In this document: one piece after another, positions 50,101 to 59,100 of the stretch | Numbering within the stretch: the stretch's first letter is position 1 | How the letters are laid out: every line of letters begins with the position of its first letter | Source: Escherichia coli | GTDB lineage: Bacteria > Pseudomonadota > Gammaproteobacteria > Enterobacterales > Enterobacteriaceae | Assembly (NCBI RefSeq): GCF_013315695.1 | Contig: NZ_CP054353.1 | Strand: one strand, 5' to 3' | Length of the DNA: 64,000 bases | Program-made: the position numbers

Positions 50101-53100
50101 GGCAAAATTGTTTTCATCGGTTTGTACATTGGTGAACTTGTTATTGACGATCCGACCTTCCATAAAAAAGAGACAACGTTACTCAGCAGCCGCAATGCCA
50201 CACGGGAAGATTTTGCGTTGGTGATTGAACTGATGCGCAGCAATAAAATTCACGAAAATTTAATGAAAAACCAGGCATTCAATTTCTTTAGTGTTGGCGA
50301 AGATTACCAGCGTAACGTTGTAGAAAATAAAAATATGGTCAAGGGTGTGATCACTTTTTAAGGGAACAAATATGACAACTGTTTATGTCAGTGAAGAAAA
50401 TTTAAAATCACTGGTGCACCACAAATTACATACCGCCGGGCTGGATACCGACACCACACAACAGGTGACAGATGTTTTAGTACATGCCGATATTACAGGT
50501 GTGCATTCACATGGTGTTATGCGTGTCGAACATTATTGCACCCGCCTTGCTGCCGGAGGGTTAAATAAAGCCCCGCAGTTTAGCATTGAGCAAATTTCAC
50601 CGTCAGTGGCCATTCTCGACTCTGACGACGGAATGGGGCATTCCGCATTAATTAGCGCCACTGAGCACGCTATTAAACTGGCCCAGCAAGAGGGCCTCGG
50701 TTTTGTTAGCGTTAAAAACACGTCTCACTGTGGTGCGTTATCTTATTTTGCAGAGATGATCACCAACAAAGGGTTGGTTGCTATCGTAATGACGCAAACC
50801 GATACCTGTGTGGCTCCCCATGGCGGCGCCGAGCGCTTTTTGGGAACTAACCCCATCGCCTTTGGTTTCCCGGTGGAAAACAGCCATCCGATGATTGTTG
50901 ATATGGCGACCAGTGCCACGGCTTTCGGCAAAATACTTCATGCAAAGGAAACCGGAAAACATATTGGTGAAGGGCTGGCGATAGATAAAAACGGTTATGG
51001 CACCACTGATCCGTATAAGATTGAAAACCTGCTACCTTTCGGCCAACACAAAGGTTCAGGCATTGCACTGGCTATTGATGCACTGACTGGCGTGCTGATG
51101 AATGCGAATTTTGGCAACCATATTGTTCGCATGTATGGTGATTATGACAAGATGCGTAAGCTGGCAAGTTTGGTTATTGCCATCGATCCGAAAAAGCTCG
51201 GCAATCCTGTTTTTGCAAAAACCATGGCGCAAATGGTCACGGAGTTGCATGCCGTTAAACCGGCTCCCGGTATCGAAAAAGTGTTAGCGCCGAACGATCC
51301 GCAAATGCACTACAAAGAAAAATGCCAACAGGAAGGTATTCCGGTTCCGGCAGGAATATTCCATTATCTGGCAGAGAATTAATCACTACTTTTTATTATA
51401 ACGATAGAAAAGCGCTGTATTTATCGTTTCTGTTATATTAACCAGGAGCAGGATATGAAAGCACTTCGTCCTCTGACGGCATCGCTTATGCTGTTAACCA
51501 GTTGTTTATTAATATCTAATACCACACTGGCAAAAATAACATTAAAACTGAGTCATAATCAGGATAAAAGCCATGCTGTCCATAAAGCATTAAGCTATTT
51601 AGCGGATAAAACCAAAGAGTATTCTAATGGTGAATTAGTTATTCGCATTTACCCAAATGCAACATTAGGTAATGAGCGTGAATCACTGGAATTAATGAAC
51701 TCCGGTGCATTACAGATGGTTAAGGTTAATGCCGCATCACTAGAATCATTTGCTCCAGATTACAGCCTTTTCAGTCTGCCGTTCTTATTCCGCGACCGTG
51801 ATCACTATTATCGTGTTCTGCAAAGTGATTTAGGTAAAAAAATACTTAATTCATCAGAAAGCAAAGGTTTTGTTGGTATTACGTACTATGACGGCGGTGC
51901 GAGAAGTTTTTATTCCAATAAACCGATTACAAAACCTGAAGATTTAGCGGGAATGAAAATCAGGGTTCAACAAAGCCCCAGCGCCATTGCAATGATGAAA
52001 GCACTCGGTGGTGTCGCTACCCCGATGGCGCAAGGCGAACTCTACACCGCACTTCAGCAAGGTGTGGTTGATGGCGGAGAGAACAATACCGTTGTCTATT
52101 CCGATATGCGTCACGCCGAAGTCGCAAAAGTCTATTCACGTGATGAACACACCATGGTACCTGATGTGTTAATTATCAGCACCGACGTGTTGAATAAACT
52201 TGGTGATAAAGAGCGCACGGCATTATTAAAAGCAGCCGGTGATGCTGCCAACTTACTGATTTAGTGTATGATGGTGTTTTTGAGGTGCTCCAGTGGCTTC
52301 TGTTTCTATCAGCTGTCCCTCCTGTTCAGCTACTGACGGGGTGGTGCGTAACGGCAAAAGCACCGCCGGACATCAGCGCTATCTCTGCTCTCACTGCCGT
52401 AAAACATGGCAACTGCAGTTCACTTACACCGCTTCTCAACCCGGTACGCACCAGAAAATCATTGATATGGCCATGAATGGCGTTGGATGCCGGGCAACAG
52501 CCCGCATTATGGGCGTTGGCCTCAACACGATTTTACGTCACTTAAAAAACTCAGGCCGCAGTCGGTAACCTCGCGCATACAGCCGGGCAGTGACGTCATC
52601 GTCTGCGCGGAAATGGACGAACAGTGGGGCTATGTCGGGGCTAAATCGCGCCAGCGCTGGCTGTTTTACGCGTATGACAGGCTCCGGAAGACGGTTGTTG
52701 CGCACGTATTCGGTGAACGCACTATGGCGACGCTGGGGCGTCTTATGAGCCTGCTGTCACCCTTTGACGTGGTGATATGGATGACGGATGGCTGGCCGCT
52801 GTATGAATCCCGCCTGAAGGGAAAGCTGCACGTAATCAGCAAGCGATATACGCAGCGAATTGAGCGGCATAACCTGAATCTGAGGCAGCACCTGGCACGG
52901 CTGGGACGGAAGTCGCTGTCGTTCTCAAAATCGGTGGAGCTGCATGACAAAGTCATCGGGCATTATCTGAACATAAAACACTATCAATAAGTTGGAGTCA
53001 TTACCGATTATGTCTACAGCAAAGAGTTGTATATCAAGGCACATTGATGTCTTTATCGCCGTCGGAGCACGTCCGGCGGCGCTATTCACGCTGATCTCCT

Positions 53101-56100: not shown

Positions 56101-59100
56101 TCTGGATGTTCCCGGAAGGAACCCGCAGCCGTGGTCGCGGCCTGCTGCCGTTCAAGACCGGGGCATTTCACGCGGCAATTGCGGCGGGCGTCCCGATTAT
56201 TCCCGTGTGCGTCTCTACAACTTCGAATAAGATTAATCTTAATCGACTGCACAACGGTCTGGTGATTGTCGAAATGCTGCCGCCAATTGACGTCAGTCAG
56301 TATGGCAAAGATCAGGTTCGTGAGCTGGCTGCCCATTGTCGTTCGATAATGGAACAAAAAATCGCCGAGCTCGATAAAGAAGTCGCAGAGCGCGAAGCCG
56401 CCGGAAAAGTTTAAGTCGGCAATCTGTATTTTTGCGGGGAACACTTTCCTGCACGGTATTACTTTAGCCAGTTTTACATGGAGCAAATATGTCACTCAGT
56501 CGGCGTCAGTTCATTCAGGCATCGGGGATTGCACTTTGTGCAGGCGCTGTTCCCCTGAAGGCCAGCGCAGCCGGGCAACAGCAACCGCTACCCGTTCCGC
56601 CGCTGCTTGAATCTCGCCGTGGGCAACCGCTGTTTATGACTGTACAACGTGCGCACTGGTCATTTACGCCAGGGACACGCGCGTCGGTTTGGGGAATCAA
56701 TGGTCGTTACCTGGGGCCGACTATCCGCGTCTGGAAGGGCGACGATGTTAAGCTTATTTACAGCAACCGCCTGACAGAAAATGTCTCAATGACGGTGGCC
56801 GGGCTACAGGTACCAGGCCCGCTGATGGGCGGTCCGGCACGGATGATGTCGCCAAACGCTGACTGGGCACCCGTACTGCCCATTCGCCAGAACGCAGCTA
56901 CTCTGTGGTATCACGCCAATACTCCCAACCGCACGGCTCAGCAGGTCTATAACGGCCTTGCCGGAATGTGGCTGGTGGAAGATGAAGTCAGCAAGTCGCT
57001 GCCTATCCCCAACCATTATGGTGTGGATGATTTTCCGGTCATTATCCAGGATAAACGGCTGGATAACTTTGGTACGCCAGAATACAACGAACCGGGAAGC
57101 GGCGGCTTTGTTGGTGATACGCTGCTGGTTAACGGTGTGCAAAGCCCGTACGTTGAAGTCTCGCGTGGCTGGGTGCGCTTGCGACTGCTGAACGCGTCGA
57201 ACTCTCGTCGCTATCAACTACAGATGAGCGATGGTCGCCCGTTACATGTGATTTCTGGCGATCAGGGATTCCTGCCTGCTCCTGTATCGGTGAAGCAACT
57301 TTCGCTGGCACCGGGCGAGCGCCGCGAGATTCTGGTGGATATGAGCAACGGTGATGAAGTGTCGATCACCTGTGGTGAAGCGGCGAGCATTGTTGATCGT
57401 ATTCGCGGCTTCTTTGAGCCATCCAGTATTCTGGTGTCTACGCTGGTGCTAACGCTGCGCCCAACCGGCCTTCTGCCGCTGGTCACAGACAGTCTTCCGA
57501 TGCGCTTGCTGCCAACTGAAATCATGGCCGGTTCGCCGATTCGTAGTCGCGATATCAGTCTGGGTGATGACCCGGGTATTAATGGACAACTGTGGGACGT
57601 CAACCGTATTGATGTCACCGCGCAGCAAGGAACGTGGGAACGCTGGACGGTACGCGCGGACGAGCCGCAAGCGTTCCATATTGAAGGCGTGATGTTCCAG
57701 ATCCGTAACGTGAATGGCGCGATGCCGTTCCCGGAAGACAGAGGCTGGAAAGATACCGTTTGGGTTGACGGACAAGTGGAGCTGCTGGTTTATTTCGGTC
57801 AGCCTTCCTGGGCGCACTTCCCGTTCTACTTCAACAGTCAGACGCTGGAAATGGCGGACCGTGGCTCGATTGGGCAACTGTTGGTCAATCCGGTACCGTA
57901 ATGGACCAATTCAATGCCCCACAGAGTGGTGGGGCATTGAAAATTACTCAGTATGCAGTCTTCACTGTGTATCAGGTCGAAAATAATCCTGGCAGCATCA
58001 GACTAAGCTGCGGGAAATAACAAATAATTGCCATTACTACAAACAATGCCAGAAACATCGGCAGTAATGGTTTTATTGCCCTGTCGATACTGACCTTACC
58101 AATGCTGCACCCCACAAACAGAATGGTGCCGACAGGTGGTGTGCAAAGGCCAATGGTTAAGTTGAAAACGGTAATGACTCCAACTTATTGATAGTGTTTT
58201 ATGTTCAGATAATGCCCGATGACTTTGTCATGCAGCTCCACCGATTTTGAGAACGACAGCGACTTCCGTCCCAGCCGTGCCAGGTGCTGCCTCAGATTCA
58301 GGTTATGCCGCTCAATTCGCTGCGTATATCGCTTGCTGATTACGTGCAGCTTTCCCTTCAGGCGGGATTCATACAGCGGCCAGCCATCCGTCATCCATAT
58401 CACCACGTCAAAGGGTGACAGCAGGCTCATAAGACGCCCCAGCGTCGCCATAGTGCGTTCACCGAATACGTGCGCAACAACCGTCTTCCGGAGCCTGTCA
58501 TACGCGTAAAACAGCCAGCGCTGGCGCGATTTAGCCCCGACATAGCCCCACTGTTCGTCCATTTCCGCGCAGACGATGACGTCACTGCCCGGCTGTATGC
58601 GCGAGGTTACCGACTGCGGCCTGAGTTTTTTAAGTGACGTAAAATCGTGTTGAGGCCAACGCCCATAATGCGGGCTGTTGCCCGGCATCCAACGCCATTC
58701 ATGGCCATATCAATGATTTTCTGGTGCGTACCGGGTTGAGAAGCGGTGTAAGTGAACTGCAGTTGCCATGTTTTACGGCAGTGAGAGCAGAGATAGCGCT
58801 GATGTCCGGCGGTGCTTTTGCCGTTACGCACCACCCCGTCAGTAGCTGAACAGGAGGGACAGCTGATAGAAACAGAAGCCACTGGAGCACCTCAAAAACA
58901 CCATCATACACTAAATCAGTAAGTTGGCAGCATCACCGACATAATCCTGGGGATTATGCAGCGGAAAACCGCCAACGTAGGGTTTAAGCAGTTTGATTAA
59001 CGGCTGATAATAGACAGGAATGAGCGGTGCCTGCTGGTTGATGATCACTTCTGCCTGCTGATACAACGCATTACGCTTTGTTGCATCAGCCGTTTGTGCC

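Follow-up and report, generated by a model that had tools for sequence, protein, structure and literature searches.

A TRAP transporter locus of Escherichia coli cut short at IS1 and split by an IS1-flanked inversion

The 64-kb stretch of Escherichia coli chromosomal DNA analysed here in full (the window) carries an accessory locus that opens with four intact genes on the plus strand. A GntR/FadR-family regulator (UxuR/ExuR-like; 46804..47553) was recognised from its ORF, its product matching the NCBIfam UxuR and ExuR models below cut-off. It is followed by a mannitol-dehydrogenase-family enzyme (fructuronate-reductase-like; 47876..49348; WP_001530874.1) that scored 508 bits against NCBIfam NF011611 (cut-off 603), and by a zinc-binding alcohol dehydrogenase family protein (49345..50361) and an Ldh_2-family oxidoreductase (AllD-like; 50372..51382), both identified by ORF and profile search. 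A 55% identity to YjjN has been reported for the zinc-binding alcohol dehydrogenase of this locus (PMC12928451). The regulator and the three dehydrogenases, together with ParC, PlsC and FtsP, are identical in protein sequence to those of strains AF10 and AF14, the nearest relatives in which the locus is undamaged. The dehydrogenase genes are intact, as a first-pass annotation of the window had described them.

The gene order in AF10 and AF14 is ygiQ, GntR regulator, three dehydrogenases, dctP, dctQ, dctM, ftsP, plsC, parC and ygiS, with dctP-dctQ-dctM intact and uninverted. The window was collinear throughout with E. coli strain MSB1_4I (3 mismatches), isolate AF3 has the same structure, and the junction described below was common to only these two of 5,426 complete E. 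coli genomes. This clone is human-associated, was sampled in Australia and the UK, and is IS1-rich, since MSB1_4I and AF3 carry at least 40 IS1-matching places each. When the parC/plsC and ygiS-side alleles were compared, the window showed 3 mismatches to AF10 and AF14 over 5,172 bp and none over 4,217 bp, whereas WP7-S17-ESBL-01 had 56 and 44 mismatches in the same two segments. Both flanks of the deleted segment, and with them the accessory locus, were present in approximately 1,210 of the 5,426 genomes, and a 61-nt stretch from inside that segment was carried by 1,208. AF10 and WP7-S17-ESBL-01 served as references for the size of the deletion and AF10 for the inversion.

Three components of a TRAP transporter are expected downstream of the dehydrogenases, and only fragments of two were detected. 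The dctP gene (51455..52237, plus strand), encoding the DctP-family periplasmic substrate-binding protein, retains 261 of 327 codons. Its junction sequence shows native dctP ending at 52237, one base before the left end of IS1 (GGTGATGCTGCC..., from 52238), with the ORF continuing 8 codons into the element, to 52264, and adding the residues GDAANLLI. Residues 1-261 are identical to AF10 DctP, and the truncated product still scored 216 bits against TIGR00787 (cut-off 175) and 227 bits against NF037995, which identifies it as a TRAP substrate-binding protein though the last 66 residues are missing. No dctQ, the gene for the small membrane subunit (160 aa in AF10, AF14 and WP7-S17-ESBL-01), was found in the 64-kb window by tblastn with intact DctQ in six frames (best E-value 0.26). 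Full-length dctM is likewise missing, 369 of its 434 codons being deleted, and what remains is the last 65 codons and the stop on the minus strand (57972..58169). The translation of this remnant matched TIGR00786 (dctM) at model positions 346-405 of 405 (E 8.7e-18; 64 bits, cut-off 268), and its DNA has 100% identity to the 3' end of intact genes annotated as 'TRAP transporter large permease'. DNA-level identity to annotated genomes settles the gene identities. Homology search and comparison with intact loci thus bear out the first-pass annotation, which had dctP truncated at the junction with the second IS1 copy, dctQ absent from the window and a 65-residue DctM C-terminus on the minus strand. 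In the NCBI automatic annotation of AF3 and MSB1_4I the dctM remnant appears as a partial pseudogene. The RefSeq records of these sister genomes have two weaknesses, in that they present truncated dctP, and also the IS1-fused ygiS, as normal protein-coding genes.

The window contains three IS1 copies of 768 bp each, identical to one another (100%), with ends GGTGATGCTGCCAACTTACTGAT and GGTAATGACTCCAACTTATTGAT. Each has the ~23-bp imperfect terminal inverted repeats of IS1 and an InsA ORF of 91 aa and an InsB' ORF of 167 aa, with insA and insB' joined by frameshift. In AF3 and MSB1_4I the element is annotated as an IS1A-family transposase with a programmed frameshift.

Copy 2 (52238..53005, plus strand, 768 bp) stands at the deletion joint and at the left boundary of the inversion. 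Compared to AF10 and WP7-S17-ESBL-01, the joint lacks exactly 1,842 bp. Of these, 201 nt belong to dctP, 483 nt to dctQ and 1,107 nt to dctM, the rest being the spacers after dctP (41 nt) and after dctQ (10 nt). In codons, dctP has lost its last 66 and dctM its first 369, and dctQ is gone entirely. The loss at this IS1 had been put at roughly 1.7-2 kb before relatives were compared. The flanks of IS1 at the dct locus, AAAGCAGCC and (once the inversion is undone) GTTTTCAAC, show no target duplication, a feature already remarked on at first pass. An IS at the joint, one-sided loss of unique DNA, no duplication and a known ancestral sequence together fit an IS-mediated adjacent deletion, the type of event proposed earlier. 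The same product would be left had two direct IS1 copies, in dctP and dctM, recombined with each other. Copy 1 of the window likewise lies at a deletion (~11 kb) without target duplication, and the lack of a duplication there and at the dct-locus junctions is as expected following deletion.

Copy 3 (58170..58937, minus strand, 768 bp) forms the right boundary of the inversion and is inverted relative to copy 2. The block between them (53006-58169; 5,164 bp) is the reverse complement of AF10 dctM'-ftsP-plsC-parC-ygiS', in line with the inversion first suspected from the window itself, and alignment to AF10 resolved the window into three blocks, with the 1,842-bp gap, the middle block inverted and a 9-bp overlap, GACATAATC. 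The inverted block begins with the displaced 3' end of ygiS (DYVYSKELYIKAH*; 53006..53047, plus strand), which corresponds to AF10 L003 15752-15793 in reverse orientation, and continues with intact parC, plsC and ftsP (53185..57901, plus strand), in reversed order compared to AF10, AF14, WP7-S17-ESBL-01 and K-12. Beyond copy 3, ygiS (58938..60512, minus strand) is without its last 10 codons and its ORF ends in IS1 at 58911. AF10 ygiS has a single copy of the 9-bp sequence GACATAATC, whereas the window has two, at 58938-58946 and, as its reverse complement, at 53006-53014, where GATTATGTC makes up the first 9 nt of the displaced ygiS end. These are the two copies of the target-site duplication. 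By chance alone, 9 bp would match at both fixed positions with a probability of ~4e-6. The ygiS target was thus duplicated and its two copies split across the inversion; inverted IS1 copies bounding a reversed segment, with the target duplication in inverted configuration, characterise an IS-flanked (duplicative) inversion.

That the locus underwent an IS1-associated deletion and an IS1-flanked inversion as such, by whichever enzymatic route, we regard as very probable. The ancestor would have carried, between ygiQ and ftsP, the regulator, the three dehydrogenases and a DctP/DctQ/DctM TRAP transporter. In a first step an IS1 would have become joined to dctP codon 261 on one side and to dctM codon 370 on the other, at the cost of 1,842 bp, either through an adjacent deletion from an IS1 already at one site or through recombination of two direct IS1. 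In a second step the 3' end of ygiS would have received another IS1, in inverted orientation, at the target GACATAATC, and the 'dctM-ftsP-plsC-parC-ygiS' segment of 5.2 kb would have been flipped. The dct-locus IS1 could have done this in a single event of inversion-type intramolecular replicative transposition; alternatively, a simple insertion came first and the two inverted copies then underwent homologous recombination. No functional TRAP transporter is left: the binding protein is truncated and orphaned, the small permease is missing and the large permease is a 65-codon stub. YgiS has an altered C-terminus. We infer the order of the events and the mechanism of each step, because no intermediate was found among the 5,426 complete genomes; the substrate and the phenotype discussed below are likewise inferred.

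IS1 involvement is also common to a purely recombinational history, a sub-variant of this explanation, in which three simple IS1 insertions (dctP, dctM and ygiS), each producing a 9-bp duplication, were followed by RecA-dependent recombination, of the two direct copies for the deletion and of inverted copies for the inversion, with no transposase-mediated intramolecular event. It predicts AAAGCAGCC and GTTTTCAAC as the outer copies of former duplications and a ygiS duplication split by the inversion, the at least 40 IS1-matching places in the clone would provide abundant recombination substrates, and independent simple IS1 insertions have struck elsewhere at this locus, in dctP of Eco-15 and in the dctM-ftsP spacer of CUVET20-PYO4. 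Against it, three insertions within 7 kb and two recombinations are required, compared to one insertion and two intramolecular transpositions, and single-insertion intermediates were found in none of the 5,426 complete genomes. Specifically, no record covered at least 80% of a synthetic query for an uninverted dctP'-IS1-'dctM arrangement, a single IS1 with target duplication was absent at either dct breakpoint, and a synthetic query for ygiS carrying IS1 as a simple insertion at this site recovered none. Eco-15 and CUVET20-PYO4 were rejected as intermediates, being partial matches with IS1 at other positions. LHM10-1 and CP52E, the sole full-length matches to the synthetic ygiS-IS1 query, were rejected as the same event; their IS1-family element is divergent (94% identity, in three pieces over a 2.8-kb span). 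The transpositional and recombinational routes would give the same final sequence, and we consider the wholly recombinational one a credible contender that falls somewhat short of being favoured.

Genes parC, plsC and ftsP are essential in E. coli K-12. A more specific form of the transpositional route, that the inversion arose in one step by replicative transposition into ygiS and turned parC, plsC and ftsP, formerly co-directional with replication, head-on to it, yet persists in the clone, with loss of the importer possibly tolerated or favoured, is offered tentatively and seems to us rather doubtful.

The transporter might instead have been dead before IS1 arrived, through a W273* mutation in dctP, with IS1 merely removing a pseudogene. 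Codon 273 lies 12 codons past the IS1 junction and is deleted in the window, and the allele was therefore judged through relatives. TGA stands at this codon in a sister group of ten genomes, which match the 5' part of the window's dctP at 100% identity, and NCBI automatic annotation flags the gene with an 'internal stop'. However, AF10 and AF14 are equally identical to the window at the 5' part of dctP and the 3' part of dctM. They read TGG (Trp) at codon 273, their dctP bears no such flag, and they share the parC, plsC and ygiS-side alleles of the window, which WP7-S17-ESBL-01 does not. A W273* allele predating IS1 in this lineage was rejected, the closer relatives AF10 and AF14 being without it, and we find it improbable; because these nearest relatives lack W273*, IS1 was likely the first lesion. 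Lastly, repeats exceeding short-read length often cause misjoins and the three 768-bp IS1 copies are 100% identical, but a false inversion and deletion produced by misjoined contigs is extremely improbable, as MSB1_4I (Australia) and AF3 (UK) are complete genomes sequenced separately on different continents with a structure identical base for base, a misjoin is unable to remove 1,842 bp of unique sequence, and the split 9-bp duplication is the exact signature of a genuine IS1 event.

The intact transporter was most likely a high-affinity importer of D-glucuronate (hexuronate). The top solved-structure matches of DctP include 4N91, 4MHF and 4N15, of which 4N91 and 4MHF are D-glucuronate or D-galacturonate binders and 4N15 is the template for a model of Salmonella STM3169 (PMC7660916). 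The proposed substrate is based on conserved residues in common with STM3169, which in Salmonella Typhimurium binds D-glucuronate with a Kd of ~0.2 uM (PMC7660916). The seven ligand-contact residues listed for it (N35, Q36, E74, R150, R170, N210 and D237, Arg170 being carboxylate-binding; PMC7660916) are all found at the same numbering in AF10 DctP, a comparison made by residue numbering, and all lie inside the 261 residues retained. By residue position, DctP would therefore belong to the hexuronate-binding group (STM3169 / Apre_1383).

With dctQ and most of dctM gone, the clone is predicted to be without this putative high-affinity D-glucuronate uptake route, and the loss of uptake forecast in the first-pass annotation holds for this transporter. 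Since E. coli normally possesses a further hexuronate carrier, ExuT, whose gene lies outside the window, growth on the substrate need not be abolished. The Salmonella counterpart of the lost route has been linked to survival in macrophages. The base-pair breakpoints show IS1 expansion eroding an accessory metabolic locus and reordering a core-gene segment in one clone. Gene decay of this kind is ordinary and already known, textbook IS1 biology in an IS1-rich clone, and its importance beyond bookkeeping is small.

IS1-promoted adjacent deletions and IS1-flanked inversions are classical products of intramolecular transposition, and adjacent deletions and duplicative inversions by IS1 are said to have been described by Reif and Saedler, Cornelis and Saedler, and Turlan and Chandler. 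No structural difference was seen between these classical rearrangements and those in the window, which have the same IS1 at the joint and the same split 9-bp target. YiaMNO, the 2,3-diketo-L-gulonate TRAP transporter of E. coli, is of the same class and is a paralogue at a different chromosomal locus; the relatives' intact DctM scored 286 bits against the YiaN model (equivalog cut-off 800) and DctQ scored 33 against YiaM (cut-off 260). Salmonella STM3169-STM3171 presumably also adjoins sufI/ftsP. It too is of the DctP/DctQ/DctM type, its seven contact residues being common with E. coli DctP (by the residue list only), whereas in E. coli a regulator and three dehydrogenase genes precede the transporter, the Salmonella operon is without metabolic neighbours (PMC7660916), and the transporter of the window is destroyed. 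The ancestral locus matches GR 21 (ygiQ..ftsP) of extraintestinal pathogenic E. coli in its seven genes and their order between ygiQ and ftsP, these being a PRK10225-like regulator, UxuB-like, YjjN-like and AllD-like enzymes, DctP, DctQ and DctM, with a function described as predictive only (PMC12928451). Compared to GR 21 the version in the window is degraded, with dctP truncated, no dctQ, most of dctM gone and the right-hand boundary inverted.

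Three sequence-identical IS1 elements of 768 bp each were located in the window, two on the plus strand (copy 1, 18851-19618; copy 2, 52238-53005) and one on the minus strand (copy 3, 58170-58937). Upstream of copy 2 are genes for a GntR/FadR-family regulator (46804-47553), a mannitol-dehydrogenase-family protein (47876-49348), a zinc alcohol-dehydrogenase-family protein (49345-50361) and an Ldh_2-family oxidoreductase (50372-51382), together with a truncated DctP-type gene starting at 51455. The reading frame of this gene enters the left end of IS1 after its last native base (52237), gains eight IS1-encoded codons (GDAANLLI) and stops at 52264; the fragment of 261 native residues scored 216 bits against TIGR00787, above the curated cut-off of 175. 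Between copies 2 and 3 lie parC, plsC and ftsP (53185-57901, plus strand) and, on the minus strand directly against copy 3, a stretch (57972-58169) whose translation gives 65 residues and a stop. This peptide matched positions 346-405, the final 60 of the 405-position DctM model TIGR00786 (E 8.7e-18), and its DNA, with the 70-nt spacer to ftsP, agreed at 100% identity with the 3' ends of genes that many complete E. coli genomes list as 'TRAP transporter large permease'. DctQ was not found in a six-frame translation of the whole window queried with the intact DctQ of a relative (best E-value 0.26). To the right of copy 3 are an IS1-fused ygiS (58911-60512, minus strand), ygiV, ygiW and qseB.

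The first-pass annotation had described a truncated dctP, a missing dctQ, a DctM C-terminus of 65 codons and intact dehydrogenase genes, all of which held; the regulator and dehydrogenase proteins are identical to those of strain AF10, a close relative with an undamaged locus. The predicted loss of uptake stands for the TRAP system, by which transport is impossible because the membrane subunits are gone. Whether the strain also loses a growth phenotype would be decided by other carriers, for example ExuT, whose gene lies outside the window.

Breakpoints were mapped by aligning the window to the AF10 locus (L003), giving three blocks: L003 1-8787 corresponds to window 43451-52237, L003 10630-15793 to window 58169-53006 (inverted) and L003 15785-20001 to window 58938-63154. 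The first two are separated in L003 by 1,842 bp missing from the window, namely the final 201 nt of dctP, dctQ in full (483 nt) and the opening 1,107 nt of dctM, with spacers of 41 nt between dctP and dctQ and of 10 nt between dctQ and dctM; the earlier estimate of 1.7-2 kb lost at the IS1 (dctP 3' end, dctQ and most of dctM) is thus exactly 1,842 bp relative to AF10. With the inversion undone, the IS1 of the dct locus is flanked by AAAGCAGCC and GTTTTCAAC, which are not a duplication, as previously noted, and were separated by 1,842 bp in the ancestor. Between the second and third blocks is a 9-nt overlap, GACATAATC, of which AF10 ygiS has one copy and the window two, the first as the reverse complement beside the right end of copy 2 (53006-53014) and the other beside the left end of copy 3 (58938-58946). 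This pattern is characteristic of an IS1 target duplication whose two copies were parted by an inversion between oppositely oriented IS1 elements. The duplication is intact at the ygiS junctions and absent at the dct junctions, which makes ygiS the insertion target and the dct breakpoints the deletion site.

The deleted part of dctM ends in 12 bases (GGCATCATTATG; L003 10618-10629) of which 8 agree with the IS1 end now in their place (GGAGTCATTACC; window 58170-58181), six of them in an unbroken run (TCATTA), and the other dct junction has GGTGA in place of GATGA. This likeness may be due to chance or to the resemblance of IS1 targets to IS1 ends that an old report described.

Two events are required for the structure of the window. 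After the first, a single IS1 would have stood with dctP codon 261 on one side and dctM codon 370 on the other, the DNA between them being lost. IS1 is a classical maker of adjacent deletions by intramolecular replicative transposition, and this route would need one prior insertion, at either breakpoint. The adjacent deletion proposed in the first-pass annotation agrees with the IS1 at the joint, the lost DNA and the lack of a duplication; recombination between two direct IS1 copies, one at each breakpoint, would leave an identical sequence and fits equally. In the second event, ygiS would have received an inverted IS1 and the stretch between the two copies would have been turned round. The observed product (old flank, IS1, inverted target copy, inverted segment, old flank, inverted IS1, target copy) would arise in one step by inversion-type intramolecular replicative transposition of the dct-locus IS1 into GACATAATC, and in two steps by a simple insertion with later homologous recombination between the inverted copies. 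No intermediate discriminating between routes was found among all 5,426 complete E. coli genomes.

In E. coli the accessory locus is widespread, with the dctP 5' part and dctM 3' part both present in approximately 1,210 of the 5,426 genomes. In AF10 and AF14, the closest relatives with an undamaged locus, the regulator, dehydrogenases, ParC, PlsC and FtsP have the same protein sequences as in the window, and the genes stand in the uninverted, complete arrangement predicted for the ancestor: ygiQ, the regulator, three dehydrogenases, dctP (327 aa), dctQ (160 aa) and dctM (434 aa), with ftsP, plsC, parC and ygiS beyond on the opposite strand. In the window (60513-60620), AF10 and AF14, ygiV directly follows ygiS without the mqsR/mqsA toxin-antitoxin pair, which adjoins ygiS in WP7-S17-ESBL-01 and also in K-12.

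The TRAP system could have been dead before IS1 arrived, through a nonsense mutation in dctP. WP7-S17-ESBL-01 (NZ_AP022173.1), 100% identical to the window in the retained parts of the locus, carries TGA at dctP codon 273, which falls in the DNA deleted from the window; this W273* change (TGG to TGA) occurs in 10 complete E. coli genomes, including EC1, NMBU-W13E19, KE40, HR5-1 and HR12-1. However, the W273* genomes have only 98.9% identity to the window in the ftsP-parC block and 97.4% in ygiS, whereas AF10, at 99.94% and 100%, respectively, is closer and has Trp273. The allele therefore belongs to a sister group in which this transporter was inactivated independently, and IS1 was likely the first lesion in the lineage of the window.

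The window is chromosomal DNA of E. coli. Its rearrangement junctions were restricted to two of the 5,426 genomes, MSB1_4I (NZ_LR898874.1; rectal swab, Australia), collinear with the window across all 64,000 bases with 3 mismatches, and AF3 (NZ_OZ547117.1; blood culture, UK), with the same structure and 3 mismatches in a 17-kb comparison. This structure, shared by two independent complete assemblies, excludes an assembly artefact, together with the missing unique DNA and the coherent logic of the duplication. In the automatic NCBI annotation of both genomes, the dctM stub already has the label 'incomplete; missing N-terminus'. In their RefSeq records this is the only flag; the truncated, IS1-fused dctP (269 aa) appears as an ordinary protein-coding gene with no pseudogene flag, as does the IS1-fused ygiS (533 aa).

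The clone is IS1-rich, with at least 40 IS1-matching places in each of MSB1_4I and AF3, and IS1-associated events are evidently frequent in its background. Copy 1, flanked by AATGCCTTA and TTAATTATT without target duplication, stands for approximately 11 kb of AF10 (record ~21.18-32.17 kb), from the 5' end of yghO, which is clipped at the element, to the 5' end of yghS. Genes for a fatty acyl-AMP ligase, an epimerase, an acyl carrier protein, a serine palmitoyltransferase and LptF/G-like permeases were lost there, with yghR and most of yghS, making this a second IS1-associated deletion within the window. Elsewhere, Eco-15 has an independent simple insertion of IS1B inside dctP near codon 69, CUVET20-PYO4 an independent IS1 in the dctM-ftsP spacer, and LHM10-1 and CP52E a divergent IS1-family element in the ygiS-parC region.

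The inverted parC, plsC and ftsP are intact, as is the convergent ftsP/dctM spacer. YgiS lost 10 C-terminal residues and gained 8 encoded by IS1. Upstream of parC, 179 nt are retained (the 137-nt spacer and 42 nt of ygiS), which probably leaves its promoter region unharmed. The plus strand of the window runs in the K-12 orientation, and on the K-12 map the region belongs to the replichore that is replicated in the direction of lower coordinates. Given this direction and the negative GC skew of the window overall (-0.024), the inversion would have turned parC, plsC and ftsP from co-directional to head-on relative to replication; the skew of the inverted block (+0.05), opposite in sign, fits a recent flip, though weakly.

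The seven genes of the accessory locus (the regulator, three dehydrogenases, dctP, dctQ and dctM) form an island of extraintestinal pathogenic E. coli ('GR 21, ygiQ..ftsP'), whose function is predicted only (PMC12928451). Relatives of DctP with solved structures include, among the closest, 4N91 and 4MHF, which bind D-glucuronate or D-galacturonate, and 4N15, the template for a model of the Salmonella TRAP binding protein STM3169 (PMC7660916). STM3169 binds D-glucuronate with sub-micromolar affinity through seven contact residues (N35, Q36, E74, R150, R170, N210, D237; PMC7660916). All seven are present in E. coli DctP at the same numbering, from which we infer that the intact system would be a high-affinity importer of hexuronate, probably D-glucuronate, supplying the adjacent dehydrogenases; the truncated protein keeps the seven residues and lacks the last 66. 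The deletion, the IS-flanked inversion, IS1 itself, the hexuronate-group TRAP transporter and the E. coli genomic region are each of an already known kind.
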